Counted from the first letter of the stretch, positions 21,492 to 40,249 are shown. The stretch: DNA of 64,000 bases from Candidatus Marinacidobacterales bacterium (GCA_965237955.1 OZ250169.1:5597888-5661887); one strand, 5' to 3'. The notes: generated by a model from the sequence alone, not told the origin. Translations and numbers: made by a program.

Positions 21492-22133
21492 CTATGAGAC
21501 TTCCTGCGTCTCCGTCACCGCGATGAGCTCGCGGCGGCGCCATTCGGGGACGACGACGCCGAGGGAAATGATCATGCGGAGCGCTTCATCCACGGTCATC
21601 TCGAGCTCGATGACATCATCTTTGGGTACCAGGATGATGAAGCCCGAAGTCGGGTTTGGCGTTGTCGGCACGAAGACGCAGACGACTTCCTGTCCGGTGT
21701 GCGCCTGGACTTCACCCAAGTCGCTCGACGTCTGGAAGCAGAGGCTCCAGATGCCTTTTCGCGGGTACTCCATGAGGAGCACTTTTCGGAACGACTCGCT
21801 GCGCGGCGACAGAAGAGTCTCCGCGACTTTCTTGACGCCGGAGTAGACCCAGCTCACGAGAGGGATGCGGGCCAAGAGCGCTTCCCATACTGCGATTAGC
21901 TTTTTCCCGAGCAGGTTGGCGGCAAAAAAACCTGTGACGAGCAGAAGCGTGAACGTCAAAATGACGCCGAGCCCGGGAATGCGAAACCCGAAGAGGTTCT
22001 CCGGACGGAGCGGCGTCGGGATCAACCCGTCCATAAAGCTGATGAAGAGACGCAACAGGAGCAGGGTGACGCCGAGCGGGATCCAGACCAGGAGACCTGT
22101 CGCCAGGTAGCGCCGGATCTTCATTTTGCGCAT
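21492..22133 (-). CDS. DUF502-family membrane protein.
   Basis: N-terminal TM helices and the overall pattern of DUF502 proteins (RRYLATGLLVWIPLGVTLLLL...). Confidence 0.7.
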   Translation of the reverse strand: MRKMKIRRYLATGLLVWIPLGVTLLLLRLFISFMDGLIPTPLRPENLFGFRIPGLGVILTFTLLLVTGFFAANLLGKKLIAVWEALLARIPLVSWVYSGVKKVAETLLSPRSESFRKVLLMEYPRKGIWSLCFQTSSDLGEVQAHTGQEVVCVFVPTTPNPTSGFIILVPKDDVIELEMTVDEALRMIISLGVVVPEWRRRELIAVTETQEVS

Positions 22134-22293
22134 TGGTCAGCCATCGCCGAAGCCTGAAAAAGGCTTCTGTCAGGTTCGTTTTTCAGGATTGTACCGAGCT
22201 CTCGCTCCATTTAACTGTAACGCGAACCGAACCTTGCAGCAAGGGAGCGCCGTTTGGACGAGGGCCCCCTCACCCGGCTCGCTCACGCGAGGT

Positions 22294-22803
22294 TCAATTG
22301 TCTAGGCACAACCATTTTTTGAGCTTCGCCATCTGTTCGGACGTCAGAGACTGGTCGTCCAGGATTTGCACGAGGTGTTCGCGATTGCGAGCGAGCGGTT
22401 TGTAGCCGCAGCCGTCGAAGAGCTCGGGGCTTGTTTGCTCGAGAAGCGGGCGGGGGTAGTCGCGGCACATACCCGGCGGTGACTCGTAGCTGTCACAACG
22501 TCTCGTGTCCACGTCGAAGTGGGTGCATTTGAAGATGAACGCCTTGTCCTCACGGCGCGCTTCGACGAGGTCGAAGCCATTGATCTTGGCATGCCACCAC
22601 AGGAAAACCTGGCGAATGAAAGGGAAATACCAAGTGAGCTTGCCGACTCGGATGCCGGGCTCTTCACAGCACTTCGCACAGCGGACGCATTCACCACCGA
22701 GATCGTAGCGGACATCGGCCTGAGCTCGGTGCAGCCACAACCGGGCGTAGTAGACGCCGAGGCTGATGCGCTTCACGCTCCGCAAAAACGGACCGTCTCT
22801 CAT
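22294..22803 (-). CDS. YkgJ/UPF0153-family cysteine-cluster (zinc/iron-chelating) protein.
   Basis: CVRCAKCCE motif plus the downstream CTHFD...C...C pattern typical of YkgJ. Confidence 0.7.
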   Translation of the reverse strand: MRDGPFLRSVKRISLGVYYARLWLHRAQADVRYDLGGECVRCAKCCEEPGIRVGKLTWYFPFIRQVFLWWHAKINGFDLVEARREDKAFIFKCTHFDVDTRRCDSYESPPGMCRDYPRPLLEQTSPELFDGCGYKPLARNREHLVQILDDQSLTSEQMAKLKKWLCLDN

Positions 22804-22821
22804 CCCAATGTCATCCCAATT

Positions 22822-24591
22822 TCATCGAAGCAGCGTCGAGATCTCCTGGATGCGGCGCTCCAACGCTCGAGATTTGTCAGCGGCGCCGTAAAGCTCGCGC
22901 AGCTTTTCGGGGATGAACATGGGGTCCGTGCTCTCGCGGATGGCAACGAGTTGTTGAAGCTCTTTTTCGAGACCGTAGTCCGGTGTTCGAAAATGCTCCA
23001 GGGTCTCGCGAATGTGCTCGGCCGTCGGGGCATCGGCGCCTGCGATCGCGGCGCGTCGAACGCATTGGACGAGAAGGCTTTCGATGTCCGCACCCGAAAG
23101 CTCGGGGGGCAGGGGAGGAAGAGCTTGCTCGTCGATTCTGACGTCGTTCTTGCGCGCCATCGCCATGAACATTTCTCGACGGGCCGCTTCCGTTTCGGGC
23201 GGGAAGAGAGGAATGTGCACTTCGCACCGTCCCTGGCGCTTCAAGTCGACAGGGAGCAGATCCGGCCGGCAGGTGAGAAGCACCCACAGAATTTTTCCCC
23301 GGTAGCGCGTGTCGCTCATGAGCGACGAGATCATCGCGAACATGCGACTCGACGTGCCGCTGTCACCACCGGCGGACCGGCTTCCCAGCGCCGCGTCGGC
23401 CTCGTCGATGACGACCACGACCGGTCCGAGCGCTTTGATGACCGACAACACTTTTTGGAGATTGCCTTCCGAGCTTCCGACCCACTTGCTCCGCAGATTC
23501 TTGAAGACGATGGTCGGGATGCCGAGACTGCCGGCTAGACACATCGCGGTAAACGTCTTGCCGGTTCCGATCATACCGCAGAGCAAATAGCCCATCGGCA
23601 ACGCTTCCAGGCGTCCGTCTTTGAAAAGCCGAACGTCTTGCTCGAGCCGCTCCTTCACCGCGTCGGGCGCGACCACGGTATCGAGATCGTAGCTCGGCGC
23701 AACGAATTCGACGAGACCGAAACATTGTTTTTCGATGAGCTCTTTCTTGGCTTCGCGGAGTCTCCCGAGGTCGACGTGATTGCCTTTGGCGCCGGAGCTT
23801 CCGACAGCCTGGCCGAGTCCTATTAGCGTGAGTCCGTTGGCCTCACGGGCAACGTCTCGAGCAGCCTTCGCACCTTCGACGAGCGTGCGCGCGTAGTTTT
23901 CGCGCGTAGCCTCGTCCGGCAGATCGACCTCGACCTTGGAGATGAACGGGTTCTCGACGATCCGGCGGTTGACGTCGCCAAGCGCGTCGGCGACGAGGCA
24001 GAGCGTGACGTCCGCACCGCGGATGCCGGGATCGTTTGCCCAGTTGAGGACTTTGATGAGGGTCGCTCCGAGCTCGCCACTCAACATCGAGCCGTCGACC
24101 GCAGGCGTGATCGTCTCGATATAGCGGATGACGATGGCGAGGCTTTTGCGATTCCCGTTTTTGGGTGTGTCGACGAGCTTGTGAAGGATGTAGCGGTCGA
24201 GGAGCTCGAAAACGAGCTTCGGATCCTTGGCGCGCGAGTTGGCGTAGCTGGTCCCGCTGATGAGGTCGATGGCTTTGAGGGTCTTGTGAAAGTCTTCCTG
24301 CATCGCCTGTCGCCGGTCGCTGTCGCCGGGCGCGAGGAAGCGAACGCCGCTCCCACGGTCGTAGCTCAAGACGATTTCGCGCTGGCCGAAGAGCTGTGTC
24401 GCCAGGTAGTGCTCGAGAGATACAAACTCGTCCGCATCCCGCCGCCCGGGCCCGTTGGGCCCGGTGAGGACGACGGGGACGAGATCGTGGACGTTGCCGT
24501 GGAGGAGAAAGACGCTCGCCGCACCGCTGACATAGCTCAGAGCGAGCTCACGCGCCCATTCGGGAGCGCTACGGCCCAAAGGGTTATTCAC
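22822..24591 (-). CDS. Classical-clade AAA ATPase with a large N-terminal domain of unknown function (~350 aa).
   Basis: Walker A GMIGTGKT, Walker B VVVIDEADA, and an SRH-like region with arginine fingers (TCRPDLLPVDLKRQGRCEVHIP). The ATG at 24696 overlaps pspA, so the start is more likely the GTG near 24591. Confidence 0.7.
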   Translation of the reverse strand: MNNPLGRSAPEWARELALSYVSGAASVFLLHGNVHDLVPVVLTGPNGPGRRDADEFVSLEHYLATQLFGQREIVLSYDRGSGVRFLAPGDSDRRQAMQEDFHKTLKAIDLISGTSYANSRAKDPKLVFELLDRYILHKLVDTPKNGNRKSLAIVIRYIETITPAVDGSMLSGELGATLIKVLNWANDPGIRGADVTLCLVADALGDVNRRIVENPFISKVEVDLPDEATRENYARTLVEGAKAARDVAREANGLTLIGLGQAVGSSGAKGNHVDLGRLREAKKELIEKQCFGLVEFVAPSYDLDTVVAPDAVKERLEQDVRLFKDGRLEALPMGYLLCGMIGTGKTFTAMCLAGSLGIPTIVFKNLRSKWVGSSEGNLQKVLSVIKALGPVVVVIDEADAALGSRSAGGDSGTSSRMFAMISSLMSDTRYRGKILWVLLTCRPDLLPVDLKRQGRCEVHIPLFPPETEAARREMFMAMARKNDVRIDEQALPPLPPELSGADIESLLVQCVRRAAIAGADAPTAEHIRETLEHFRTPDYGLEKELQQLVAIRESTDPMFIPEKLRELYGAADKSRALERRIQEISTLLR

Positions 24592-25342
24592 TGGATTCGG
24601 ACGCGGCCTCTTTCTGGGGGCCGACGGTTTTCTCGGTCGCTTCCGACGAAGGCTCGGCGAGTCCTTGCTCGATCTTGAATTGAGCCAGGAGCTCACCGGC
24701 TGCGACTTGGTCCGCCGCCTGCTTTGCCTTGAGCGCGTCGATGCCCTGATCGCTCAAGTCCGACGCGACCTTGGACCGGGCTTTCGCTTTGTTGATCTGA
24801 TCGTCGACCCGGCTCATGATGGCGTCGATATCAGACGACACATCGAACGAGGTATTGAGGGCGCCTGCCGTCTCGGAAACTTCGGCGAGCGCTTTCTCCA
24901 TCTGGAGCGCCGCCTTCTTCTTCTCGAGGTCCTTCTTGCTGTTGCCGATTTCAGTGAGAGCCGCCTTCATCTTCAGAAGGTTGTTCTCGTAGTTCTCTTG
25001 GTGCTGGGCGAGCTGCTCGTTGTTGCTCTCGAGCCCGTCTTTGACTCGAGAAAGCTCCAGTGCGAGCTGGCCGGCCATCTCTTCCTGATTGGCCTTTAGA
25101 TGGTTCTTGATCTGTCCGGTGAGGCTCGAGATCCGTGAGGTCTCGCTTGCGACTTGTGCCTCCACTTTCAGAACCAGTGCCTGATAGGAGATGAGCCCCT
25201 GGCGAGCCTCTTTCAGGCGTTCGGTAGCCTGCTGGAGTTTCGCCTCAGCCAGGGGGATGACGTGCTTGTCCTCCATCTCGGTGACGGACTTGTTGAACAA
25301 GGCGTACCAGACTGCTTGGATGCGCGCGAAAAGTCCCATCAC
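24584..25342 (-). CDS. pspA: PspA/IM30 (Vipp1/LiaH) family protein of the ESCRT-III superfamily.
   Basis: MGLFARIQAVWYALFNK... N-terminus resembles PspA (MGIFSRFADIVNANINALL). The ~250-aa product is an all-helical coiled coil with a charged C-terminal tail. Confidence 0.65.
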   Translation of the reverse strand: MMGLFARIQAVWYALFNKSVTEMEDKHVIPLAEAKLQQATERLKEARQGLISYQALVLKVEAQVASETSRISSLTGQIKNHLKANQEEMAGQLALELSRVKDGLESNNEQLAQHQENYENNLLKMKAALTEIGNSKKDLEKKKAALQMEKALAEVSETAGALNTSFDVSSDIDAIMSRVDDQINKAKARSKVASDLSDQGIDALKAKQAADQVAAGELLAQFKIEQGLAEPSSEATEKTVGPQKEAASESSE

Positions 25343-25404
25343 TGACTCCCTTCGATGATAGCTAGTGGAAGAATCCTAACAGCAATACTTTTCAACGGAA
25401 AGGA

Positions 25405-25547
25405 GGAAAGACGCGAAGGCGCAAAGGGGATCGATGGCTCGTCCGGATCCCGATGCGTGATCCTTCTTTGCGTCTTTGCGTCTTAGCGCCTTTGCGTTAA
25501 AAAGCATCATGTCGCGGATTCCTCTTGCGCCTTGGCGCCTTTGCGTT
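25405..25547. repeat. Intergenic cluster of GCGCCTTTGCGTT / CTTTGCGT repeats, one of which is inverted.
   Basis: Contains gaaggcgcaaagg (inverse orientation), a tandem ctttgcgt x2, then agcgcctttgcgttaaaaa and ggcgcctttgcgttaaaaaa. Confidence 0.5.
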
Positions 25548-25555
25548 AAAAAACA

Positions 25556-28500
25556 TCACGTAGTGCTCTCGTCGGCCTCGGCCTCGGCTTCTTCAGTGTC
25601 GGTCATGTTCGATAGCGCCGAGACGTTGATCTTTTCGAGGGCCTCGACGAGCTCGGGGATGTCGTCGACGTATTCCAGTTTGCTGATGAGTGCCTTGATG
25701 TTCGGATCGTCGACGCCACGGTAGCCGCGGAAGCGATGGGCCATGAAGCGCATCAGCGGGATCAGCGTACCCTCGATGAGGTAGGACTCGCGCGAAATGA
25801 GCTCGTAATCCGCCGGCGGCGCCTCGGGTTCGGCGTCGGGCGCGACTCGCTGCTTTTGACCGTTCCCGAACGCCTCGAGGAGCTCGTGCAGCTTTTCGGT
25901 GTACGGTGAGAGGTCAAGCTGGACGTCTACCTGCGCTGGTTTGGCCGCGGCGGAAAACGCGGCCAGGTCGGGATCGACGGACAGTGCGGCTGGGCGCGAG
26001 CCAGCTTTCTCTATAGCGCGGTCGATGCTCTCGCCGATGCCTTCGAGGTGCTCGGACACCATGCTGAGCTGACCGGTGAGGCGTGTTGCCGGGTCATCCT
26101 CGCCACTGCCCATGCGTTGGATGCGGACGTAGCCCTTCTTGATCTCCTCCCACCGTGCGCGCTGAGCGTCGCTCAACCGTCCCCGCATCTCGCCGAGCTT
26201 GAGGAGATTCTCCTCCGCACCGGTGGTGAGCGTCTGTGATTCACCGAGATAGTGGTCGTCGATGAGGTTCTCGAGCTCTTCGTCGTTCATGGCCGGCACG
26301 ATCTTCTCCGTCAGCTTGTTCATATTGCGGTAGCTCCCCTGGAGACGGAACGGGGGCTCGGTGCGATAGGCATCTTCTTGCGAGGCGGAGCGGATGTATT
26401 GCTGGTTGACGGCGAGCAGGGTCTGCTGCACCTTCAAGAGCTTTTTCAGCACCGACTGGATCTCGCCGATCTCCACCGCCGAGTAGCCGTGCTCGAGCTG
26501 GTCGGATTGAATCGGCTCTCCCTGAGCCATGCGCACGAGCATGACGATATCGTTCTGCTCTCGTGTCGTCAGCGGTGCGAGCACGTTGTTCGACGTCAGT
26601 GAGTTCTCGATGTAGGAGAGCGCGAACAGATCGCCTTTGCCTTCGAGAATGTCGCCGAGGTTATAGGTGTCGGCGCGGTTGGCGAGCATGTCCGGGATCT
26701 GGAATTTCTCGCCTGACTCGGTGTACGGGTTTCCCGCCATACACACGATGAACTTCTTGCCTCGCAGATCGTAAGTACGGGTGCGTCCCTTCCATACACC
26801 TTCCACTTTACGCTGAGCGTCGCACAAAGAGATGAACTTCTGGAGGAACTCGGGATGCGTGTGCTGGATGTCGTCGATGTAGAGCAGAACGTTGTTGCCC
26901 ATCTCGAAGGCGAGATTGAGCTTTATGATCTCCTGACGCGCGGTCGCGTTCCCTGCCTCCGCGGGATCGAGTGACGTGACCGAGTGGCCGAGCGCGGGCC
27001 CGTTGATTTTCATGAACACTAGGCCGAGGCGGTTGGCCAAATACTCCATCAGCGTCGTCTTGCCGTAGCCCGGTGGCGAGATGAGAAGGAGCATGCCCAT
27101 CAAATCGGTCCGCTTGTCTGCGCCGAGCGCTCCCATTTGCTTGGCGAGGTTGTCGCCGATGAGAGGCAGGTAGACGTCGTTGATGAGGTGGTTGCGCACG
27201 AACGACGACATGACTTTGGGCTTGTATTCGTCGAGGCGCAGGGCGTCGCGCTCTCGTTCGAGGACGGCGTGCCGCGCTTTCTGGAAGTCACGAAAGCCGG
27301 GAACGAGGCGGTAGCGGAAGTGGCCGAGGCGCGACAAGAACTCGTCGAGGTGGAGCTCCATGCGGCCTTGTTGAATCCGTGGATGCTGGCCTAGCAGTCC
27401 TTCGATACTCAATTTCGCCTGCGCGCTCGATGTCTCCCGGCTCACCTTGCCTTCGAACAAGATCGCGACCACGGCTTCTTGAGCGGCGCGCGCCGTTTGA
27501 TTGGTCTTCTCGAGAAAAGCCGTCACCCACGCGAGGGCAAGATCGTAAGCGCGCACCGGTGATTCTCGAAGCCCACGAAGATCCTGCTCAAAGTCACGCT
27601 CGGCGCTGGATTCGCGCAAATGCTTCTCGAACGCCTTCTTGAGCTCGTCGGCTTCCGCGCTCAAAACGAACTTCTGCGGCTCACGCGCGATCTCTTCGAG
27701 GAGATAGGCACCCGCGCGGCGCGCGGCGCGCTCGGGCACGTGGATGCCGAGCTCGGCCAGATGCTCGGCGATCGCGGTGTTGAGCTCGGAGCCGAGATCG
27801 GTGAGCGCGTCACTTGTTTCGAAGTGCGTCCGCAGGCGATGCAAGCTCTTCGCCTGGTTTTCCCACGTCGTCCGCTTCTTGCGGTCCGGGTAAAGAGCCC
27901 AGAACACGGTGGCGAGGGCTCGCGCTGTGGGCGTGAACGCAGGAGATCGGCGCTCTCGTGCATGCCGAGAGTTTTCTGGAGGATGAGCGTGGCGTCGGCA
28001 TCGTGGAGGCCGCGCTCGTAGCCTTCGTCGTAGCGCTCGGCCGCGTAGTCCCGCACGATGGCGAGAAGCGCGTTGTCCACTCGGGTGGCCTCGTGAAGCT
28101 TGGCCAGTGACAGTCCGGCGTCGCCGATCTCGGCGTCTTCGAGAATGCAATAGGCGAGGTACTCCGAACGATAGACGTCGTCGGTTTCCGAGACCAGTTC
28201 TTGCGCCCAGAAGTCACGCGTTTTGGCGAACTCCTCGTCGTCGATCTGCTCATAGAAACCGGTGCCACTCAGGTGGAACGCCATACCGTCTTCGCGCGGC
28301 ACCATCGTGAGCTCCAACGGCTGGGTGTTGACGCTGAAGCGATGGCGTCCGAGCTTGATGACGTTAGCGCCGTCTTCGTAGATTTCTCGCCGATCGCGCA
28401 GACCTTGCGCGGCGTCTTCTTTGGCGGCTTTGAGCCGGCCATCGAGCTCGTCGGCATGCACCGAGTTGCCGAGCTCTCTCAGGTTGGCCGCGGTGTTTCG

Positions 28501-30936
28501 TAGCTTGGCGACCATGGGGTCCGAAGCGAAGTATGCGTTCAAAGCGTCGGAGCTTTCGAACTTCTCGGCGCGTCTGGTGACGCTCCCGAGGATGCGATCC
28601 GCCGCATGCATCAAGTTCTGCGCTCGTCGTTGGCGCCGGTCGACGAGCGATTGCTTCTTGGAGCTGAACGCTTCGTAGATCTCTTCGCGCTTGGTGGTGA
28701 GCTCGGTCACGAACTCGTCGAACTCGGAAAAGCGGGTTTCGAGGTCTTCGAGCTGCAGCATGAGCTTCGAGAGTTGCTCGTCGCACTTCTCCGGCGAGTC
28801 GGAAAGCGCCAGCGCGCTGGTGACGCTTTGGCTCAGCAGCTGAAACTGGACGCCGAACTCGGCCACGCCTTCTTTGCCGAGAAGCTCTTTGCGCCGGTTG
28901 GCGATGAGCGCCCGCACGCGGTTGAGGCTTCCCATGATCTCGGAGATGTTGCTGAGAATCTGGGTACGGACGGTCGCATCGTCGATCTCGAGCGAGCCGA
29001 TGACGTCGGTAAGGAGGTCCAGGCCGTCACTGAGCTCCTGCAACGACGCCTGGTGGTCGTCCGCCTCGGTGACTTTCGAGAGTCCGGCGACGCCTTCTTC
29101 CAGCTCCGCCGCGCGTTGGTGGTAGGGAAGCAGTGCTTCGGCTTTCAACAGGAAGTCGACCGCCCGCTCGCTCACCGTATCGAAGCGCTCGATAATCTCC
29201 GCTTCGAGGGCGTCGATGTGCGTCAGGTCGACGTAGCGCACTTCACGGAGCGTGATCAGGTGGCCCCGGGCCGAGCGCAGGCTGGCCAGACAGGCGACGA
29301 ACTGATCGATCGACGTCCACGAATCGGGATAGATCGTCCGGAAGAGCTCCTGGATTTTCTCGGCGGCTTCTGCGACTGCCTTTTTCGCGTCAGCACGGAG
29401 CGCCTCGACTTTCTCGAACTCGTCGATGATGCTCTCGGCGGTCTCATGAACTTCGTCGAGGACTTCGCGCAAGTTCCCGATTTCGGCCTCGTCGAGCCAG
29501 TAGTAGCTGTCGATGACGCGCGCGGTAGCGGCGACGAGGTCCTCGTACTTCTGGCGCGTCGGCTGCTGCTCGTCGACCATGCGGCGGATGCTGAGGCAAT
29601 CGGAGACGCCGCGAACGAGCTCGGCGTTGCCGACTTTTTCGAGAAACGATCCCGTGGGCGGCAGCGCTTTCACGTGCTCGTCGCTCATGAACGGCGTGCG
29701 CCACAGCTGCATGTTGTGCACCCGCTTGGGCTCGTCGGTGTCGGCGCGGAAGATGATGACGGTGCCGTCAGGGAAGAGACTGAACCCGTGACAGGTGAGG
29801 GGATTATCCACTTCCTTCCGGATCATGTTGTACGGGAGCAGAATCGTGCGCCCCGCCTCGCGCTCGTGGAACGCGTACAGCACGTCCTCGCCGTTGGGGG
29901 AGCGGATGCGGCGCAAGTACTCCATCCCTTGGATCTCGCGTTCGAAAGATTTGGTGTGTCCGCTCTGCAGGTAATAACCGCCCGGGAAAATGATGCCGTG
30001 GTCTTCGGGAAGCTGGACACAGGCCTGACCGATCGCATCGATGCGATCGACTTGTTGGGTCCGGGTGTTGAACACGAGATATCGATACTCGGTCTCGCGG
30101 TAGGGGAGGACCTTGAGCAAGATTAGCGTGCCCACTGTTGCGTAGTGGACTTGGGCGTCGTCGAGCGCCTGGTCGGCATCGAGCACCGGCTCGCGATAAA
30201 TGCCCTGGCCATCCTCGGTGTTGTTCTCGACTTTAATTGTCAGGTCGCCGCCGAGCGTCTCGACGAAGACTTCGTCGAGAATGTTGACGTGGGGGTAGTG
30301 GCCCTGGATGTGGTCCTCGCGCACCGTCGCAGTCCATTCGAAATCGTGGGTCGGAGGGAAGACGTGGTCACGCTCGCCGCGGTTGTCGATGTAGCTGACG
30401 GCGCCGTCGGGTGCTACCGCCCAGCGAAACACGCGCACGTCGTCAATCTTCTCGCCGATTTGGAACACCGCGAGCAGCTTTTCGCCGACGCTTCGCAGCT
30501 GGAGGAGCTTGGTTTGCTCATAATAACGATAGAGCTCCTGGAACTCCTCGATGAACTTGGGGTCGGAGAGGAAGTAGCCGGGCGCATCCTTCGAAACACT
30601 TCGCAACGAGATACCCTCGTCGGTCTTCTCGAACGTATGCAGGCTGAAGACGTCTTCGATGTGCGTCTGGCGCTTGAGGCCGATGAAGACGTTGTAGCCG
30701 AACAGAAGGTAGTTGCCGACCTCCTTGATGTCCCGGGGAACACAGTTGTTCTCGGTACGGATCCGTTCGTTCCCGAGAACGGCGAGATCGGTGCCGCCGA
30801 AAAGCTCGAGGCGTTTCTTGTTGAGCGTCTCCGCCCGCTCGGCCAGGACTTTCCCGTGGCCGAGAAGGCGGTCGCGAATGATCTCGTAAGTGCCGCGCTC
30901 GATCTCGACCTTTTGGACGTCGGTGCTGGTGCTCAT
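25556..30936 (-). CDS. Giant (~1,790 aa) protein: N-terminal beta-rich domain, long coiled-coil region, an AAA_5/MoxR-type P-loop ATPase domain and a helical C-terminal domain. Its reading frame is interrupted by an apparent frameshift near 27920-27940.
   Basis: ORF 27661..30936 is protein-like up to ~GMHESADLL and then degenerates into Arg/Ser-rich off-frame text. ORF 25556..28150 becomes protein-like from ~ALATVFWALYPDRKK. The downstream part carries Walker A LLISPPGYGKTTL, Walker B NVLLYIDDIQ, and sensor-1/Arg-finger FIVCMAGNPYTESGEKFQIPDMLANRAD, matching MoxR/AAA_5. Confidence 0.6.
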
Positions 30937-30968
30937 TGCCTAATACCTAAAACCTGATGCCTAGCGCC

Positions 30969-33032
30969 CTAGAGCCTGACGTCGTCGATGCCGAGTGCCT
31001 TGGCCTGACGCTGGAGCTTCTTGAGCTTCTCGAGGTCGTCTCCTCCCGTGCCGGTGTCAATTTCAGTGGCGAGCTTCGCCAGGAGCGCGCCGATGGTGAT
31101 GTCTTTCAACGTGCCGCCATCGATCCCGGACTCCCGCATCGCCTGACGGATCTCCTGGATGATGTTCTTGTCGCCGTTCATGAAGTCCTTGGCGAGGCCG
31201 GAGATGACATCGCTCTTTTCTACGAGCTCGTCGATGCCCTTGCCCATACCGATGGAGTTCACCATACGGTCGAGGAAGGCGCCGTCGCCGCCGACGATGT
31301 CGATGTCGGCGGATTCGAGGGCCGTGGCGAGGATCTTGGCCTTGTGCGCGGCAACGCTCTCCCGAGCTTGGATGGCTTCGAGCCCGAGTACCTTCTCGTT
31401 CTCGATGCGCAGGCGGTACTCTTCGTGCGCCCGGCTGTCCTTGTCGAGAGCTCGCATCGCTTCGGCCTTTTCGGCAATACCCTTGGCTTCGGCGGCGAAT
31501 TTGTCGGCGACAGCGTGCGCGTGGGCCGAGCCCTTTGCGCGCACGACGGTAGCCTCGGCGGTGCCCACCTTCTCGACCGCGGCGGAGTCGGCTTCGCGAA
31601 CACGTACTTCCGCGAGACCGTGCTTCTCGGAGGCGATGGCGTCGGCTTCTTTGACGCGGGCGGCGGCGAGACCTTGGGCCGCGGATTCGGCCTGGACGCC
31701 TTCGGCGATGCGAATCTTGGACTTGGCTTCGCGATCGGCGGCTTCGAGCTCGGCGTCGGCCAGGGTGACGAGCTCGACGGCTTTGTGCTTCGCGGCCTGC
31801 TCCTGAGCTTCGGCGGCCTTGATGTCCTTGACGAGCGCTTCCTCGGCCTCGGCCTCGGCGGCGATGACCGTCGCTTCCTTGTTGCGCTTCGCTTCCTCGA
31901 CGACCTGAAGCTCTTTGATGCGCTCCTGCTCCTCGACGACGGTGCGCTCGACGGCGACACGCTCACGGATGACGTCTTGGATCTCTTTGCGCTCGACTTC
32001 GAGAGCTTTCTCTTTGTCGATGCGTAGAAGCTCGACCTCACGTTCGCGGATTACGGCTTCGAGCTGGCGGTCTTTCGCGACACGCTCGGTCTCGACCCCG
32101 ATGACGCGCTCGCGGTTTTTCCCAGCAACCTGGACTTGTCGGTTCTTGTTCTCTTCCGCGACCATGACTTCTTCGTCGGTCTTGATGCGGGCTCCTTCGG
32201 ATTTCAGCCGTTCTTCCGCCTGGACTTGCATCAGTAGCGCGGTTTCGCGGGCGCGGACGGATTCGATCTCGCGCTGTTGCTTGGACTTCGCGTCGGCCTC
32301 TTCGCGGTCGAGCTCGAGAATGACTTTGGCGCGCTCGACATCTTGTTTCTTGATGGCTTTTTCTTCGTTGTTCTCGAACTCGTTAGTCTGGACGTGCTCG
32401 ACCGCGGTGAGCTCGGTGATGCGGCGGATACCTTGGGCATCGAGGATGTTCTTGGGGTCGAGGTGCTCGAGGGGGGTCTGCTCGAGGTAGTCGATCGCGG
32501 CGTCTTCGAGGACGTAGCCGTTCAAATCGCGGCCGATGAGCTCAATGATGGCGTCGCGAAACTCATCGCGTTTGGTGTAGAGATCGACGAAGTCGAGCTG
32601 TTTTCCGACCGTTTTCAGCGCCTCGGAGAACTTGGCGCTGAAGAGCTCGTCGAGCGTTTCGGGGGAGGAAGCGCGGGCGCAGCCGATTGCTTGAGCGACT
32701 TTGATCACGTCTTCGACGCGCTTGTTGACGCGCACGAAGAACATGACTTTGATATCGGCGCGAATGTTGTCGTGGCAGATCAGTCCGTCCTTGGCGCGGC
32801 GGTCGATCTCGATCGTCTTGACCGAGATGTCCATGACCTCTGCTTTGTGGATGACCGGCAGAACGAAAGCGCCGGTAAACGTCACCTCGGGCTCTCGCTT
32901 CATTTTGTTGACGACGAGCGCCTTGCCCTGCTCCACCTTGCGGTAGAACTTGGACACCATCATCAGGAATCCCCAGCCGATGATGATGAGCGCTACGACA
33001 CCCACCGCACCTAGAAACACTAAATCCATCAT
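30969..33032 (-). CDS. Flotillin: an SPFH/band-7 domain followed by a long EA-rich coiled coil, YqiK-like.
   Basis: N-terminal TM helix, an SPFH domain (KALVVNKM...FVLPVIHKAEVMDISVKTIEI...), then ~300 aa of E/A/R/K heptad repeats characteristic of flotillins. Confidence 0.8.
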   Translation of the reverse strand: MMDLVFLGAVGVVALIIIGWGFLMMVSKFYRKVEQGKALVVNKMKREPEVTFTGAFVLPVIHKAEVMDISVKTIEIDRRAKDGLICHDNIRADIKVMFFVRVNKRVEDVIKVAQAIGCARASSPETLDELFSAKFSEALKTVGKQLDFVDLYTKRDEFRDAIIELIGRDLNGYVLEDAAIDYLEQTPLEHLDPKNILDAQGIRRITELTAVEHVQTNEFENNEEKAIKKQDVERAKVILELDREEADAKSKQQREIESVRARETALLMQVQAEERLKSEGARIKTDEEVMVAEENKNRQVQVAGKNRERVIGVETERVAKDRQLEAVIREREVELLRIDKEKALEVERKEIQDVIRERVAVERTVVEEQERIKELQVVEEAKRNKEATVIAAEAEAEEALVKDIKAAEAQEQAAKHKAVELVTLADAELEAADREAKSKIRIAEGVQAESAAQGLAAARVKEADAIASEKHGLAEVRVREADSAAVEKVGTAEATVVRAKGSAHAHAVADKFAAEAKGIAEKAEAMRALDKDSRAHEEYRLRIENEKVLGLEAIQARESVAAHKAKILATALESADIDIVGGDGAFLDRMVNSIGMGKGIDELVEKSDVISGLAKDFMNGDKNIIQEIRQAMRESGIDGGTLKDITIGALLAKLATEIDTGTGGDDLEKLKKLQRQAKALGIDDVRL

Positions 33033-33063
33033 CGAAATCCCCCTCTTACAAAACCGTAAAGGC

Positions 33064-33819
33064 TCACGATTCCTCCGTAACTTTGGCGGCTTCGGTGAGC
33101 GCTGCGTCCACCGGGCCTATGAAGAAGACCCCTTCGGACGGCTCATATCGGTAAACGAGTGCCTGCGCACCTCGTGTCAGCCCGTTGTCTTGCGGACAAC
33201 GGACCTCGGCAACGAAACCGGCACCGCCGTCTTCGATCTCGGCGCGGCCGAAATTTCCATCGACGCGTGCCGAAAGCACGGTGCATATTTTGCCGATGAG
33301 CGACGCGCGGCGTGGAGCTTGCTGCGTAACGAAGAGCTTGCGGAAGGGCCGGGAGCTGATGGCCGCCATGATGAGAGCGCCGAAACCGGACGTAACGGCG
33401 ATGGCGAGTCCAACGATCACCGTCGCGGCCAGCGGTCCCAGGAACCTGGTGCTCAAGTAGCTGAGGATCCAGGCCCAGAAGAGCACGAACGTGCCCACGA
33501 TCGTGATCGGCATCCCGCGGACGCCCATGGCGTTGAGTAGACCGCCCAAAAGGCCACCATCCTCGCCGTCTGCGGCGTCGGCGTCGGCAGCGCCCTCGGC
33601 AGCCCCTTCCGCGACACCTTCAGCACTGGCGTCGAGCGCGCCGTCGATTGATTCAGCCGCGCCTTCGACCCCGCCGTCCGCCACTCCTTCGATCGACTCG
33701 AGCGCCCCGTCGAACGCGGCATCCATGCTGTCGAGGCCGAGGACGCTATCGAGAAAGTCGAGATCGAGTGCGCCGAAAATCACGACCATCCAGTACAGTG
33801 AGCGCCATCGCCAGGGCAC
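33064..33819 (-). CDS. YqiJ/NfeD-like membrane protein (DUF1449) with an OB-fold C-terminus, partner of the flotillin.
   Basis: TM helices, an acidic GA-rich linker, and a C-terminal NfeD-like beta domain (GKICTVLSARVDGNFGRAEIEDGGAGFVAEVRC). It precedes the flotillin gene by 31 bp, as yqiJ precedes yqiK in E. coli. Confidence 0.6.
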   Translation of the reverse strand: MPWRWRSLYWMVVIFGALDLDFLDSVLGLDSMDAAFDGALESIEGVADGGVEGAAESIDGALDASAEGVAEGAAEGAADADAADGEDGGLLGGLLNAMGVRGMPITIVGTFVLFWAWILSYLSTRFLGPLAATVIVGLAIAVTSGFGALIMAAISSRPFRKLFVTQQAPRRASLIGKICTVLSARVDGNFGRAEIEDGGAGFVAEVRCPQDNGLTRGAQALVYRYEPSEGVFFIGPVDAALTEAAKVTEES

Positions 33820-34239
33820 AGGTGAATGCGATCGTGGGAAACGACACGAGCGTTGTCAGAAACTCCTGCACTCTTTCGGCTCCTTTCGACTGACTCGTTG
33901 CGGGTGGCCCGATGCGAGACGATCGCGGGCGATCACGCGCCGACCGATGCAACAATGAGGCACCCTGCTAAGGAAGCCCCTTCCGTTCGATAGAAAGCTA
34001 TCGGTACGTGAGAATCGTGAAATCGGTTGTGAATGTGCCGGTTGTAGCGATTCGGGCTTTTTCAGACCCGAACTCTGCGACTAATAGTAAGGGAAGTCCG
34101 ACCGAAAAATCAAGCGGGTAGCGTGTTTCGTGAATGCTCGGTGTGGTTCGGAATTGCGCTTGTGAAAAAGAAGTTCGGTTCTCCTGTCGTTTCGGGGGAT
34201 CTGATTTGTGTTGGAGGGCATGGCCTATGGACGCTGCCG

Positions 34240-34533
34240 CGATTGTGGAAAACGCCGGAAACTCCGGGCGAGAGAGGCGTTTAGGGAAAGGTTGTGAGCA
34301 CGTACAAACGTGGAGCGGCGTTTTCCACAATCGCTTGGAAAACGCTTCGCGTTTCCCACGAGCGCCCACAGGCCCCTCCTGATATATATACAAGAAAGAT
34401 TAATTCATATGGAATAAGGAAGGGGGGGCTCGATTAGTGGAGGCTATGGAAAACGCCCTTCCAGGCTTCGAAGAGAACTCAGTCGTGAGCAAGGTCTGAA
34501 CGACCAGAACCGTGGGGGCGTTTCCCACAGCCT
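34240..34533. repeat. Array of five copies of a ~12-bp motif GTGGAAAACGCC or its complement, including a perfect 17-bp inverted repeat.
   Basis: cgattgtggaaaacgcc (34240-34256) and ggcgttttccacaatcg (34317-34333) are exact reverse complements. Further copies sit at 34336-34363, 34445-34460 and 34517-34533, all in an AT-richer non-coding stretch. Confidence 0.5.
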
Positions 34534-34599
34534 CGTCTCCCGCTGAGGGGCAGTGGCATTTGGTGAGGCCCGTGGGTTGAGAGGGTAAGCCATGTGTAG

Positions 34600-35880
34600 A
34601 TGCGCATCGGCGAGAACGCTAGAATCTTTTTTTCCGAAAGAGAAAAGAGCGTTCCCGCGATGCGCGTTACTACGTTAGTCAACAAGCTCATCGGATTGCA
34701 AGGCCTGTGGGTCCGAGGTTTCCACTTCCAGGCGGACAAAGCCAGAGTGGTGGTGGATGTAGTACCACGGAGGAGGAAGCCTCTGTGCGGGATTTGCGGA
34801 CGAAAGGTCCGCAAGAACAAAGATCGCTACAATCGCTACTGGCGGCACTTGGACCTGTTCGGAGTCCGGACCTATCTTCGCTACTCGATCCGACGAGTGG
34901 TATGTCGGCGGTGTGGAGTGGTCAGAGAAAAGGTGCCTTGGGCCGACAAGGGAAGCCGCTTTACCAAAAGCTTCGAACAAGAGGTAGCGTGGCTGGCACA
35001 GAGGACGGACGTCAGCGCCGTAGCGAACTATTTCCGAGTGACGTGGCGTTCGGTGCGACGGATCATCCAGCGAGTGGTTGCCGAGCAGCGGGATGAGCGG
35101 CGCGAGCTCGATGGATTGCGGGTGATTGGGATGGACGAGATCAGCTACCGCAAACGCCACAAGTACTTAACAGTGGTAATAGACCATCTCAGCGGCCGGG
35201 TCGTCTGGGCGGGAAAGGAGCGCAAGGCCAAGACGCTGCTGCGGTTTTTCCGCAAGCTCGGACCACAAAGAGCCGCGGAGCTCGAAGCGGTCAGCATGGA
35301 CATGTGGGAGCCGTACATAACTGTCGTCGGCAAAAAGGCTCCTCAGGCACGGGTGATCTTTGACCGCTTCCACATCGTCAAGCATCTGAACGAGGCCGTG
35401 GATAAGACCCGGCGCGAGCTGGTGCGCGAGCTCAAAGGGACTGCCCGGCGCAACCTCAAGAACACCAAGTTTCCCCTTCTCAAGGCCAAACACAACCGCA
35501 GCGCGAAAGACAAACGGGTGCTCCGCGAGCAGGTGCGAGCTAATCGTCGCCTCTACCGCGCCATGCTTCTGCGCGACGACTTCATGGACCTCTACACCTA
35601 CAAAACCGAGACATGGGCCAAGAAGTTTCTCCGAGGATGGCTGCGGCGCGCTATGAGCTCGAGGATAGAGCCCGTCAAACGCGCGGCGAAGATGATCCGC
35701 AGCCACTTCGATGGCGTCATCGCGTGGGTCACGTGGAGACTCAGCAACGGCCGACTCGAAGGAATGAACAACAAAATCCGGCTGCTGAGCCACCGCAGCT
35801 TTGGACTCCACTCTGCCGAAGCTCTCATCAGTCTCGTCTACCTAAACTGTGGCGGTCTCACCCTCGAGAGGATCCACTGA
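34600..35880 (+). CDS. ISL3-family transposase.
   Basis: The full-length (~420 aa) sequence matches the ISL3/IS204/IS1001/IS1096/IS1165 transposase family (zinc-finger-like CGICGRK...CRRCG N-terminus, DDE region with IGMDEIS... and SNGRLEGMNNKIR). The start is probably at MRVTTLV (34660). Confidence 0.8.
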   Translation: MRIGENARIFFSEREKSVPAMRVTTLVNKLIGLQGLWVRGFHFQADKARVVVDVVPRRRKPLCGICGRKVRKNKDRYNRYWRHLDLFGVRTYLRYSIRRVVCRRCGVVREKVPWADKGSRFTKSFEQEVAWLAQRTDVSAVANYFRVTWRSVRRIIQRVVAEQRDERRELDGLRVIGMDEISYRKRHKYLTVVIDHLSGRVVWAGKERKAKTLLRFFRKLGPQRAAELEAVSMDMWEPYITVVGKKAPQARVIFDRFHIVKHLNEAVDKTRRELVRELKGTARRNLKNTKFPLLKAKHNRSAKDKRVLREQVRANRRLYRAMLLRDDFMDLYTYKTETWAKKFLRGWLRRAMSSRIEPVKRAAKMIRSHFDGVIAWVTWRLSNGRLEGMNNKIRLLSHRSFGLHSAEALISLVYLNCGGLTLERIH

Positions 35881-36079
35881 AATGGCAGGAGAGGCAGAAG
35901 TTCTTCACTTCCGTTTGGCCGGGTCTTGGTTGGCAATGTGTTGTCTTCCGTTTAAGTCTATTTGTGTCATAGCGTTGGGTGCCGGCGGTTTCAGCGTGTG
36001 AACGAGAAGCTGCGCGTTCGCATTTTCGCCTTGACAGAGTCAAGGTGCGCTATTAATGTCTCACTCGGGGATGGTTGAA

Positions 36080-36630
36080 ATCCCTCGCCTTTAGGCGAAG
36101 CCTTTAGGAGGCTTGGGGTACGATCCCCAGGTGAAAGGATATCGTAAATCATCGCACACGACGTACCAGTTAAACTATCACTTCGTATTTATCACGAAGT
36201 ACCGCAAGCCGGCCTTGAGAGGGGATGTAGCGGTTCGTCTCCGGGATCTCATCCGGGAGATCTGTGCTCGGAACCAGATAGAAATACTGAAGGGTCATGT
36301 GCGGCCTGAGCAGTTGCATCTGTTACTGAGCGTGCCGCCGAATTTGTCGCCGAGTCGAGTGATGCAGTTGATCAAGGGTAAGACGTCGAATCGTCTGATG
36401 CGAGACTTTCGGACGATGCGGAAGGAGTTCTGGGGTCGGCACCTATGGGCACGGGGTTACTTCGTGGTGACGACGGGCAACGTGACGGATGAGGTGATAG
36501 CGAAGTATATAGAGTTGCAAGGTGCCGTGCCCCAGGACGACGATTCTTTCAAGGTTAGCGAGTAGTGAAACGAGGCAAGGACAAGCCGACTTTAGTCGGC
36601 GACGTGAACCCATCGCCTTTAGGCGATGGA
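36080..36630 (+). mobile_element. IS200/IS605-family insertion sequence of the IS200 type (tnpA only).
   Basis: The palindrome CGCCTTTAGGCG occurs near both ends (36086-36097 and 36614-36625). An additional hairpin GCCGACTTTAGTCGGC lies at 36585-36600, and the element encloses the tnpA CDS. Confidence 0.6.
36113..36565 (+). CDS. tnpA: IS200/IS605-family Y1 (HuH) transposase TnpA.
   Basis: The 150-aa product has HuH YHFVFITKYR and the catalytic-Tyr region typical of IS200 TnpA. It uses a TTG start preceded by AGGAGG. Confidence 0.8.
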   Translation: MGYDPQVKGYRKSSHTTYQLNYHFVFITKYRKPALRGDVAVRLRDLIREICARNQIEILKGHVRPEQLHLLLSVPPNLSPSRVMQLIKGKTSNRLMRDFRTMRKEFWGRHLWARGYFVVTTGNVTDEVIAKYIELQGAVPQDDDSFKVSE

Positions 36631-36857
36631 GCGCACGCGCTCAGTATTGGTCTACCCAACACAACAGAATATAATAATATGTTCTTCGTTTGTGCTTCCA
36701 ATAAAGGCATATCGCCAGGGGTCCGCATAAGGCCTGTTCATTTTTTATGCCGGGCCTACCATCCATCGACCGAACCCGCTAATTTATCCTGCTTTATCTT
36801 TAACCTCGTCCTGAACTCTCCACATACATAATCCCTGGCAGCTTTTGTTGGGACACA

Positions 36858-38159: not shown

Positions 38160-38615
38160 TCGAGCAGCCTTCACTTTCAGTTTTTCGTCGATGAAATCGG
38201 CGTGGGGAACGTGCAGAAGTTTCGCGATTTTCCGGATCAGGTACTCCTCGCGCTCCTCGAGGCGGTCGTCGCTGAACGCGACCTGCCACAAAAGCCCGAC
38301 GATGTGCTTTTTCTGCTCGGCGGTGAAGCCCTTGTCGACGAGGCGGGTGAACTCGTACAAAGAGATGGCTTCGTTCACTTCCTGTTCCGCGAGGGCGATG
38401 ATTTCGCGGGTCTCCTCGTCCGAGATGCCGAAACTGTCGCGAAGTGCTTGTTCGATAGCGAGCTTCTCCTCGTCGGCGATCTTGAAGTCGGCCCGCGAAA
38501 TCTCGATGAGAAGAGCTGCGGTCGCGAGCTTTTGCGCGTGCTCGAGCGAGACAGGAGTGGTCTCCTCGGTAACGGTGATGCGTGCGTAGAAGAATTCCTG
38601 GATTGTTCTAATCAA
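38151..38615 (-). CDS. TerB-family (tellurite-resistance TerB / DjlA-N-like) protein.
   Basis: All-helical ~150-aa product with the TerB pattern (LIEISRADFKIADEEKLAIEQALRD...HIVGLLWQVAFSDDRLEEREEYLIRKIAKLL). The likely TTG start overlaps the anti-sigma stop as TTGA. Confidence 0.6.
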   Translation of the reverse strand: MIRTIQEFFYARITVTEETTPVSLEHAQKLATAALLIEISRADFKIADEEKLAIEQALRDSFGISDEETREIIALAEQEVNEAISLYEFTRLVDKGFTAEQKKHIVGLLWQVAFSDDRLEEREEYLIRKIAKLLHVPHADFIDEKLKVKAAREK

Positions 38616-40249
38616 GCTGGAACCTCTGGCGCCGTTACCGTATCTCGAAATCGTCCCTGAACATAGGTAGCAAGCGCTCCGAAACCCCACAGGGCGACGA
38701 GCACCGCCGCGACGAACGAGACAAACGGGATCGACTTCGCGACATGAATCAGGAACAAGCCGAGAGCGAGGCGGGCGAGGCCGGCGCTCGCGCTCGTCGG
38801 GGTTCCCAGGATCTCCCGTCCAATGTAGGCCGCGACGTACACCTGCGCAACGTAGAGACCGACGCCGAGGACGAAGAGCGTGGTCATCCCGAGCGGGGCG
38901 CCTACGATGGTGATGGTGACCAGACATCCGGATGCGAGCAGGACGATTGCCGAGACGACCCCGGTGACGAAACTCTTCCCGTAGTCGGGCACGTGCTTCG
39001 TCACGATTTCTTCGGTCGCTTCGGGCGTTATCAGCATCAGGACCGCGCCGAAGATGAAAGCGGCCGTCCAGAAGTAGAAAAACGCCGTGGCCCACGAGAC
39101 GACGGGCCGCTCGTCGTCTTCTTCGGTCTGCTCGAAACGGATGGGTGAGGCTAGATCGGCGCCGGGATCGACGTCGGGCTCGTCCCGACCATAGAACGTC
39201 GCGTCGCCGCCGATCCCTCCATCCGCGCCGATCGTCAGACGCTCGCCCGCCATGAGAGCTGAGCCTTCGACGCGTGCGTGAATCTCGGTCGTCTGGGCGG
39301 CGAGGATGATGTCGCGCGGAACGGGTGCATGGAGAATGACTTCGCGAGCGCCAGCGGTGAAGCTTCCTCCGAGGCTCGCACCGCTCGCGAGGCGAACGAT
39401 CTCGCCTGCGGCCGTGATGTTGCGCTCCACCACGCCCTCGATGTGCAGCCGTTGCGAGCCAGTTCGGACATTGCCTCCCACGCGGCCGGTGATGTCGATG
39501 GTCTTGGCGAAGCCGATGACGTCACCCCTAACCTCGCCGACGACTTCCACCGTGCTGGCGAAGACTATGAGGTCTCCGTCGATGATCCCCTCGATGCGGA
39601 CTTCCTCGGCGGCAATGATGAGGTCGGTCTCGATCACGTGGCCCGCACGAAGTGTGTACACTTCGACGTCGACCTCGATGACCGCCGCTTCCGTGCGTGC
39701 CGGCAAGGCGACGACTCCAGTGATCACCGCGAGGGTTAGACACAACGTCGCCGCGGACCTTCGGAATCGACGCCACGCCCAATGCAGGACGTAGCCGGCA
39801 AGGACGAGCACCGCGAGAAGCACCGCGCCTTGGATGAGCTTCAACAACATATCTGACCACCCTCTCCAGAGAAGACTGCGAATCAAAACGGTCGTGGCAA
39901 CGCTCGTGCTGTCGAGGCCCACGGTCTCCATCCCGTCGACCACGGGGGAGACGTATCGTGTCCACAACGAAGAAACGCCGAGCGTGCCGAAAACGAGGAT
40001 TGCCACCAGGACCCACGAGATGTCGGCGTGGCGCGGGCGAATATGGTCGGGAAGCGCTTCTTCTTCTTGGAGGACGGCGGCGCGGAGAATCTCGGTCTCC
40101 GCTTTCAGCGCTTCGTAGCCAGCGCGGCAGCGCGCGCATTCGATCAAGTGATTTCGAGTGGCGTCTTCGCGATCCCGGGACAGCTCGCCTTCGGCGAGCC
40201 GCAGGATCGTGAGCTCGTCGACATGCTTCACGCCGTCGGATGGACTCAC
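38612..40249 (-). CDS. Anti-sigma factor (zinc-finger anti-sigma domain) fused to a bactofilin-like polymer-forming domain and a C-terminal polytopic membrane domain.
   Basis: N-terminal HLIECARCRAGYE (HxxxCxxC ZAS motif) and a TM helix. This is followed by beta-helical repeats (GEVRGDVIGFAKTIDITGRVGGNVRTGSQRLHIEGVVERNITAAGEIV...) and then 4-5 TM helices. The start overlaps the sigma-factor stop as ATGA. Confidence 0.65.
   Translation of the reverse strand: MSPSDGVKHVDELTILRLAEGELSRDREDATRNHLIECARCRAGYEALKAETEILRAAVLQEEEALPDHIRPRHADISWVLVAILVFGTLGVSSLWTRYVSPVVDGMETVGLDSTSVATTVLIRSLLWRGWSDMLLKLIQGAVLLAVLVLAGYVLHWAWRRFRRSAATLCLTLAVITGVVALPARTEAAVIEVDVEVYTLRAGHVIETDLIIAAEEVRIEGIIDGDLIVFASTVEVVGEVRGDVIGFAKTIDITGRVGGNVRTGSQRLHIEGVVERNITAAGEIVRLASGASLGGSFTAGAREVILHAPVPRDIILAAQTTEIHARVEGSALMAGERLTIGADGGIGGDATFYGRDEPDVDPGADLASPIRFEQTEEDDERPVVSWATAFFYFWTAAFIFGAVLMLITPEATEEIVTKHVPDYGKSFVTGVVSAIVLLASGCLVTITIVGAPLGMTTLFVLGVGLYVAQVYVAAYIGREILGTPTSASAGLARLALGLFLIHVAKSIPFVSFVAAVLVALWGFGALATYVQGRFRDTVTAPEVPA

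Follow-up and report, generated by a model that had tools for sequence, protein, structure and literature searches.

A frameshifted giant ATPase gene of the DUF3686 family in a flotillin cassette of Candidatus Marinacidobacterales

An operon predicted by Ravi et al. (2024; mSystems, PMC11237479) runs from a YqiJ/YuaF transmembrane (TM) protein, through a protein in which Band-7, coiled-coil and flotillin regions are combined, to an ATPase made up of a beta-propeller, a coiled coil and an AAA domain. In the same description a CesT/Tir-PspA dyad stands before the operon, PLD occurs in some Proteobacteria, shorter forms without PspA are widespread, and some PspA genes are paired with an AAA+ protein having two AAA domains. 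In Acidobacteriota, Popp et al. (2022; PMC9239133) found PspA genes to be linked with those for Band-7/FloT and NfeD, and according to a 2025 review a Vps4-like ATPase appears to be absent from bacteria (PMC7619361). Here we describe a locus of this type in a Candidatus Marinacidobacterales bacterium (GCA_965237955.1 OZ250169.1:5597888-5661887), in which the giant ATPase gene is interrupted by a frameshift. The whole stretch analysed, of 64,000 nucleotides (nt), is referred to as the window, and the features under study lie on its minus strand.

The locus shares with the operon of Ravi et al. the three genes in the same order, the same order of domains in the ATPase and an association with PspA. 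It differs in that the window's clade has PspA downstream, together with a Cdc48-like AAA gene, and has neither the upstream CesT/Tir(DUF2170)-PspA dyad nor a PLD gene, and in that the window copy is frameshifted. The window gene is a frameshifted new member of a known but uncharacterised family, in a type of operon that has already been described.

Two further sets of systems are comparable with such a locus, and among them HflK/HflC-FtsH and ESCRT-III/Vps4 provide precedents for its logic, although these two are not homologues of it. In HflK/HflC-FtsH an SPFH cage surrounds an AAA+ machine, and QmcA-YbbJ and FloA-NfeD are SPFH-NfeD complexes (PMC13220708, PMC13086221); like these, the locus encodes an SPFH scaffold and an NfeD-type partner with an AAA+ ATPase, and its products would be expected to act at the cytoplasmic membrane under stress. 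Unlike FtsH, the window ATPase is predicted to be soluble, has no protease domain and belongs to another AAA+ clade. With ESCRT-III/Vps4 and PspA-PspF the locus shares the arrangement of a polymer-forming membrane scaffold beside an AAA+ ATPase that possibly controls its assembly; however, the giant ATPase is of MoxR type rather than Vps4 type, its invariant partner is flotillin rather than PspA, and the classical AAA protein encoded nearby matches Cdc48/VAT better than CdvC/Vps4. Overall, we hold with reasonable confidence that the locus is best explained as a single giant gene with an unprogrammed one-base break, lying in a flotillin cassette, and for its product we infer a role at a membrane scaffold.

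One gene in two reading frames

An earlier note made on this DNA had described two minus-strand open reading frames (ORFs) overlapping by ~490 bp, each protein-like only on its own side of ~27930, and had read them as one frame broken by a single indel. The ORFs lie exactly where it had placed them, at 27661..30936 (1091 aa, ATG start) and 25556..28150 (864 aa, TTG start), with an overlap of 490 nt, and the switch between protein-like and junk sequence is seen in both translations. The first is protein-like until ...GMHESADLL(R) / ...LILQKTLGMHESADLL and then runs on as a 91-aa junk tail rich in Arg, Ser and Pro; the second opens with 71 Arg-rich junk residues and is protein-like from FTPTARALATVFWALY... 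/ FTPTARALATVFWALYPD... onward. When joined at 27937-27939 they give a protein of 1,793 aa, close to the ~1,790 aa that had been expected, and the whole gene occupies 25556..30936, including the stop codon. The two ORFs are halves of one gene, on the evidence of this joined translation, of the homologues and of a DNA alignment with the closest relative.

A search of a large protein collection with the joined sequence, in which 8,000 candidates were scored and matches at E <= 1e-10 were counted, gave more than 6,400 proteins. Nearly all of the best 120 of these homologues are encoded in one ORF of ~1,700-1,900 aa, two being partial with 1,536 and 1,633 aa, and all but one combine the Pfam families PF12458 and PF25472 with an AAA-type domain, the exception, P0049, having PF12458 and PF25472 only. 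The joined protein aligns over 98-100% of its own length with members of 1,700-1,900 aa, and the junction ...ADLLRFTPTARALATVFWAL... is uninterrupted in an alignment of the 12 closest homologues. The closest of all (P0001) is a single ORF of 1,797 aa, 95% identical at 100% query coverage, and is borne by a 70.7-kb metagenome contig from ENA, here called L001, whose gene order is the same as that of the window. This syntenic orthologue is intact, and its tblastn match to the window is split between frames -2 and -1. The comparison with related genomes that the earlier note had proposed gave orthologues that are uniformly single ORFs and not consistently two genes.

At the DNA level the giant genes of the window and L001 are 94% identical, and they differ by indels of 9, 3 and 6 nt and by a sole indel that is not a multiple of three, a base absent from the window at ~27938. 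This agrees with a single break in the interval 27920-27940, as had been claimed. The site (27937..27939, minus strand) is the codon of Arg1000, which lacks its third base and reads CTG CG- TTC; where three orthologues have CGG-TTC, CGC-TTC and CGA-TTC for Arg1000-Phe1001, the window has CG-TTC, the loss being GG to G on the coding strand. The earlier suggestion of a sequencing error in a CCC homopolymer does not hold, as the lost base turns CGG into CG and the nearby CCC (cacgcccac) is of equal length in the orthologue. As assembled, the gene would yield a fragment of 1,000 aa, consisting of propeller and rod, with the 91-aa junk tail and without the ATPase.

Neither the product of the 1091-aa ORF nor the 687-aa protein encoded upstream of it is on record as an exact product, and neither allele of the junction was matched when JGI metagenomes were scanned for the exact pattern. 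A frame plot of GC content at third codon positions (GC3), which was meant to reveal more frameshifts, missed even the known break in the giant gene. Long overlapping same-strand frames at 42-44 kb, 46-50 kb and 61-63 kb were tested as further frameshifts and proved to be separate, complete genes.

Origin of the break

The ratio of nonsynonymous to synonymous substitution rates (dN/dS) of the giant gene, computed against L001, is 0.132 over the 999 codons before the break and 0.107 over the 792 codons after it, and these 792 codons contain no stops or further frame breaks. Since dN/dS is equally low on both sides and no further lesion lies downstream, the lesion is either an artefact or very young. 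Moreover, among the 22 members of a sister cluster (the P0004 cluster, 82% identity), which come from metagenome assemblies, there are fragments with a junk end or an internal start at about aa 318, 812, 1022 and 1397, and none breaks at aa 1000. The positions differ among copies, and breaks in the giant gene are therefore sporadic. Within this cluster P0125, P0130, P0131 and P0133-P0135 are fragments of the same giant gene on long contigs; the gene is often split in metagenome assemblies, and database counts of 'short DUF3686 proteins' are thus inflated by artefacts.

These data bear directly on two explanations in which the sequence as assembled would be functional. The first, which the earlier note had listed among the possible causes, is that a programmed -1 ribosomal frameshift or transcriptional slippage makes the full-length protein. 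A -1 shift at the break would restore the frame, and this is the sole point for it; the site, CUG CGU UCA, has no slippery heptamer of the form X XXY YYZ and no homopolymer or A/T run, all orthologues, including one that is 95% identical, are in frame with CGN-TTC, and broken copies elsewhere break at other sites. We regard recoding as scarcely credible. The second is that the window holds two separate functional genes, one for a propeller-rod protein and one for an ATPase with a start of its own, for which an in-frame GTG is available 10 codons past the junction. No orthologue is split at the junction, however, no sequence resembling a ribosome-binding site precedes the GTG, and the upstream ORF continues for 91 junk codons beyond the junction, which makes translational coupling impossible, so that we give this explanation next to no chance. 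Sporadic breaks, orthologues in frame and the lack of a slippery site together lead us to reject both programmed recoding and a conserved split.

There remain a consensus error of the assembly and a very recent inactivating mutation of the giant gene, between which the chances are about evenly divided, and both have to account for a second lesion. The first gene of the cassette, at 33064..33871 on the minus strand, encodes a YqiJ-like (NfeD-type) membrane protein of ~268 aa. Its GTG start at 33871 is conserved and has AAAGGAG upstream, but an extra A at ~33799 (CTCACTG in the window, CTC-CTG in the relative) leaves its first 24 codons (VQEFLTTLVSFPTIAFTCALAMAL) in a different frame from the 244 that follow. 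In a tblastn comparison of 16 syntenic L001 proteins against the window, 14 matched intact genes, and the two that were split over two frames were those of this gene and of the giant ATPase gene. In addition, a block at ~34173-35896, ~300 nt upstream of the cassette, is missing from L001 and contains a transposase ORF of the ISL3 type (34600..35880, plus strand; DDE_Tnp_ISL3, HTH and Zn-ribbon), although inverted repeats around this gene did not define the ends of the element. Beside it a second block of ~590 nt (~36057-36648) is likewise missing from L001.

If both frameshifts are consensus errors, the organism's gene is intact, and to this we assign an even chance. Consistent with it, purifying selection is equally strong on either side of the break, no other lesion follows downstream, and the giant ATPase family is very strongly conserved. 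Several of the 22 sister-cluster members are broken at differing positions, as expected of sporadic indel errors in long genes, and the contig spans the insertion sequence (IS) copy, which is compatible with long-read data. Against this, neither change, the loss of a G from GG or the gain of an A between two C, is an error of a long homopolymer, and the two lesions both fall within one cassette while 14 other syntenic genes are intact. The alternative is genuine, very recent pseudogenisation, with the flotillin-ATPase cassette being lost in this strain, whose chance we put only just short of even. It would explain two independent 1-nt frameshifts in two of the three core cassette genes and in none of the 14 other genes compared with L001, and the insertion of the ISL3 transposase block ~300 nt away. 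However, the cassette accounts for about half of the coding DNA compared, so that for two lesions placed at random the chance of both falling in it is roughly 0.2 (as estimated from the tblastn spans); dN/dS is not relaxed, there are no nonsense mutations, and the flotillin, PspA and AAA genes are intact.

A defect of a similar kind was seen elsewhere in the region: a gene for a CxxCxxCC-domain protein (22294-22803, minus strand) encodes 169 aa in the window and in a locus whose giant ATPase is 82% identical (L084), and is called as 58 aa in L001 (18294-18470). The closest relative thus has a broken or mis-called gene here, and such defects are scattered through these assemblies.

Architecture of the giant ATPase

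The order of domains proposed in the earlier note, that is a beta-rich N-terminal domain, a long helical region, an AAA_5-type P-loop domain (GYGKTT; LLYIDDIQ; MAGNPYTE...ANRAD) and a helical tail, was verified throughout. Its statement that no characterised homologue has this layout is right in so far as none is characterised, but the layout itself is known, as DUF3686 + DUF7902 + AAA, with thousands of members. The Pfam match to PF12458 (DUF3686, 'ATPase involved in DNA repair') has 708.5 bits and E 3.6e-213, against a gathering cut-off of 25 bits, and covers positions 2-448 of the 448 in the profile. PF25472 (DUF7902) matches with 96 bits (cut-off 26 bits), and in the second half of the protein AAA reaches 30.2 bits (cut-off 21.2 bits) and AAA_5 27.0 bits, also above its cut-off. 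The giant protein is a full member of the Pfam DUF3686/DUF7902 family of giant ATPases. NCBIfam gave only P-loop-length matches to RuvB, and in a sequence search of the PDB the N-terminal half had no match and the C-terminal half P-loop matches only.

Structure prediction of each half, as the earlier note had advised, was carried out with AlphaFold2 (AF2) from alignments of 53 sequences each. The mean predicted local distance difference test (pLDDT) score is 83 for the N-half and 78 for the C-half, and is low at residues 647-712 of the latter. In the model of the N-half a helix at residues 16-46 leads into an all-beta domain (52-413); then come long helices over ~420 residues (430-850), a small beta domain (876-918) and further helices. 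In Foldseek the large beta domain resembles WDR91 (WD), paraoxonase and prolyl-oligopeptidase propellers and the terminal domain plus linker of the clathrin heavy chain (E 1e-4 to 3e-7), with TM-scores that are low because the query is long. These models suggest that the N-terminal beta domain is a beta-propeller and that the rod following it is spectrin-like. In the coordinates of the window, 29500..30846 is the DUF3686 region (aa 31-479), in which an N-terminal helix precedes the predicted propeller; the propeller strands, about aa 52 to 413, are at 29698-30783. The rod of helical bundles (aa ~430-850) lies at 28387..29649 and includes DUF7902 (aa 600-684, 28885-29139). The small beta domain (aa ~876-918, KLGRHRFSVNTQPLELT..., 28183..28311) is conserved, with invariant residues, and stands between the rod and the helices that precede the ATPase.

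The AAA+ module corresponds to aa ~1250-1470 of the joined protein (26528..27190), with Walker A GYGKTT at 27053-27070 and the DD of Walker B at 26870-26875. The family shows no variation in Walker A, Walker B (YIDD), the sensor-1 Asn (MAGN) or the Arg of ANRAD, and the window copy has all four intact; together with an alpha/beta core and a helical lid these motifs, including the Arg finger, are those of the AAA+ superfamily. As the earlier note had claimed, the module is of the MoxR/AAA_5 kind: besides the AAA_5 profile match, the closest structural similarity is to MoxR proteins, the best matches being CbbQ and NorQ. Of the two elements expected in the H2-insert clade, the single AF2 model shows a hairpin (strands 377-382 and 385-390 of the C-half) ahead of sensor-1 and none between beta2 and helix 2. 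Proteins of the MoxR family (CbbQ, NorQ, RavA) have about 300-500 aa and usually a VWA partner; the window module lies 1,250 aa into a protein of 1,793 aa, has no VWA gene near it, has DD in Walker B and is modelled without the helix-2 hairpin. Beyond the module lies a helical region (25559..26527), highly conserved at aa ~1470-1620 (RTEPPFRLQGSYRNMNKL, DDHYLGESQTLTTGAEENLLKL), which gives way to a linker of variable sequence and then a helical tail. The giant ATPase has no predicted TM segment. Judged by its motifs and profiles, the intact protein is predicted to be soluble and cytoplasmic, of ~200 kDa, with a catalytically complete MoxR-type AAA+ module.

The flotillin cassette, its neighbours and a possible function

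Upstream of the giant gene lies a gene for a protein of 687 aa (30969..33032, minus strand) that we identify as a YqiK-type flotillin, with an N-terminal TM helix, an SPFH/Band-7 domain, long Glu/Ala-rich helices and a flotillin C-terminal region. Its family profile was compared with E. coli YqiK, which is annotated as a flotillin family inner membrane protein, by hhalign (probability 99.9, E 1.7e-32), and its orthologue in L083, a locus of the window's clade, matches Pfam Band_7. The ~268-aa multi-TM protein encoded by the first gene was compared in the same way with E. coli YqiJ (probability 93.8, E 1.7e-7). The 687-aa protein and the 251-aa upstream neighbour matched nothing in Pfam, even at E up to 1, or in NCBIfam, and the upstream genes were therefore identified only through profile comparison with YqiK and YqiJ; a profile search of the PDB with the 687-aa protein had flotillin-1 as its best match, which was not significant (E 0.22).

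The conservation of this arrangement was surveyed in 81 loci, comprising 80 contigs taken as one genome per species (L002-L081) and L001, from Acidobacteriota, Myxococcota, Actinomycetota, Gammaproteobacteria and Planctomycetota, in which the ATPase is 47-61% identical to that of the window over ~1,700 aa. In 79 of the 81 the ATPase gene has a flotillin homologue upstream of it in the same orientation, at a median gap of 80 nt, and the two loci that have none are contigs that start at the ATPase gene. A YqiJ-like homologue is present in 72/81, and apart from these two genes no neighbour is widely conserved across the surveyed loci. Even a family member of only 29% identity is preceded by both genes (hhalign probability 100, E 1e-51). 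The family is large: the N-half matched 1,390 clusters built at 50% identity, 470 of them at E <= 1e-30. On this evidence of gene order and profile similarity, the giant ATPase gene stands third in a strictly conserved cassette, after the genes for a YqiJ-like NfeD-type membrane protein and a YqiK-type flotillin.

Downstream of the cassette, on the same strand, are two genes characteristic of the window's clade. The first (24584..25339) encodes a PspA/Vipp1-like protein of 251 aa, belonging to the ESCRT-III superfamily, with a match to Pfam PspA_IM30 (E 3.4e-9) and a full-length match to the structure of Synechocystis Vipp1 (sll0617; E 4e-5). The second (22822..24591), whose start, as placed by tblastn, overlaps the end of the first, encodes a classical-clade AAA ATPase of ~589 aa with a Cdc48/VAT-like C-terminal AAA domain (Pfam AAA, E 1.8e-21); in the PDB it matches VAT/Cdc48/p97 (E 1e-25 to 1e-30), and its NCBIfam matches to CDC48/PAN/FtsH/CdvC are all below the cut-offs. 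The pair is found downstream of the cassette in L001, L084 and L083, that is at 95%, 82% and 72% identity of the giant ATPase, whereas a PspA-like gene at this position was found in 0/80 of the loci L002-L081. In the gammaproteobacterial loci, instead, genes for DUF2170 (CesT/Tir-like) and PspA precede the cassette and a PLD gene follows it; DUF2170 and PLD genes are both missing from the window, where the PspA gene lies downstream. As far as gene order indicates, the link between PspA and the cassette recurs independently, in the gammaproteobacterial loci and in the window's clade, and the five-gene arrangement with PspA and a Cdc48-like AAA protein downstream is a clade-specific variant of the operon type already described. 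By analogy with ESCRT-III/Vps4, the PspA-like protein and the AAA protein are a candidate bacterial pair of scaffold and AAA ATPase.

The reading of its function that we prefer, tentatively and from gene linkage and fold, is that the giant ATPase is recruited to a flotillin/NfeD scaffold and remodels it at the expense of ATP, in a module for envelope stress and membrane maintenance that includes PspA. The propeller and rod would dock the ATPase at the cytoplasmic face of the membrane scaffold, where ATP hydrolysis, in the non-threading, chaperone-type manner of MoxR proteins, could assemble, remodel or disassemble the scaffold or its clients, and the ATPase would act alongside PspA. Remodelling without threading is suggested by the MoxR fold and by the sequence at the pore-loop position, GHSVTS, which is read as having no aromatic residue.

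Several observations weigh against this proposal. One is that same reading of the pore-loop position. In the single AF2 model there is no hairpin between beta2 and helix 2 (residues 313-330 of the C-half), and, although MoxR proteins usually work with a VWA partner, no gene close to the cassette, whether in the window or in related loci, gave a VWA match. Full-text literature searches found no published experiment on any member of the DUF3686 family. A bolder form of the proposal, in which the giant ATPase is the missing energy source, or dedicated motor, of bacterial flotillin scaffolds and the five genes form a membrane-repair module of two scaffolds and two ATPases, seems to us doubtful. 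In this version the motor would dock on the YqiK/YqiJ assembly by its propeller and spectrin-like rod and would build, reshape or strip it, and in the window's clade it would be coupled to a PspA polymer that has the Cdc48-like AAA protein as its own partner; if true, the module would include a bacterial counterpart of the ESCRT-III/Vps4 pairing.

The names in use point elsewhere. Pfam calls the family 'ATPase involved in DNA repair' and NCBI 'DNA repair ATPase', and a DNA-repair ATPase would be consistent with the weak similarity to RuvB, which covers the P-loop only (about 45 residues), and with SMC/Rad50-like matches, including LmuB/JetC, which cover the coiled coil only. Yet no nuclease, helicase or DNA-binding domain was detected in the Pfam, NCBIfam and PDB searches, the invariant neighbours are membrane-scaffold genes with PspA and PLD recurring nearby, and the best fold matches are chaperone-type ATPases of the MoxR family, all of which makes a role in DNA repair very unlikely. 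Hardly more probable, although we rank it a little higher, is that the cassette is an anti-phage or conflict system in which the giant ATPase would be sensor or effector, working with a membrane effector. Defence systems do include large ATPases with propellers and coiled coils, as well as membrane-perturbing partners; PspA takes its name from phage shock, and some loci have a PLD gene. However, PADLOC-DB 2.0 gave only weak coiled-coil and generic AAA/P-loop matches for the giant protein and PspA and none for the flotillin-like and YqiJ-like proteins, and the neighbouring AAA protein matches IetA through its AAA domain only and is far below the NCBIfam cut-off for IteA. Identity of 47-61% across phyla and stable local synteny within the clade are unlike fast-evolving defence islands, and no defence genes were identified near the cassette.

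Some features of the surrounding DNA may be recorded. The intergenic region between the giant ATPase and PspA genes (25340-25555, minus strand) is ~150 nt longer than in L001 and holds two tandem copies of TGATG(C/T)TTTTTAACGCAAAGGCGC(C/T)AAG..., with, by eye, a partly complementary segment (CCTTTGCGCCTTCGCGTCTTT); these features may represent a small repeat element or a hairpin with a regulatory role. A consensus scan of 22000-34600 found no sigma-70-like promoter, and terminator-like matches were near the number expected from shuffled sequence. Upstream of the cassette, 38161-40847 (minus strand) encodes a sigma factor of the extracytoplasmic function (ECF) type, a DUF8173 protein and a TerB-domain protein, with a counterpart at 2274-4994 in L001; the three genes are syntenic in L001 and L084, DUF8173 and TerB are also present in L083, and they may belong to a linked stress regulon.

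For annotation, the two ORFs should be treated as one frameshifted gene, and the name 'DNA repair ATPase' has no support and should not be propagated. What the window itself shows is mostly ordinary, a damaged or mis-assembled copy of a catalogued gene. The family, on the other hand, is worth attention, being an ATPase of ~200 kDa that keeps 47-61% identity over at least five phyla and is almost never found apart from the flotillin/NfeD pair, and one that has come to be associated with PspA more than once. The cassette bears on whether any ATPase acts on flotillin assemblies or PspA polymers, and is, in tractable hosts such as Pseudomonas, Myxococcus and Streptomyces, a direct, testable candidate for how bacterial flotillin assemblies may be built, regulated and dismantled.

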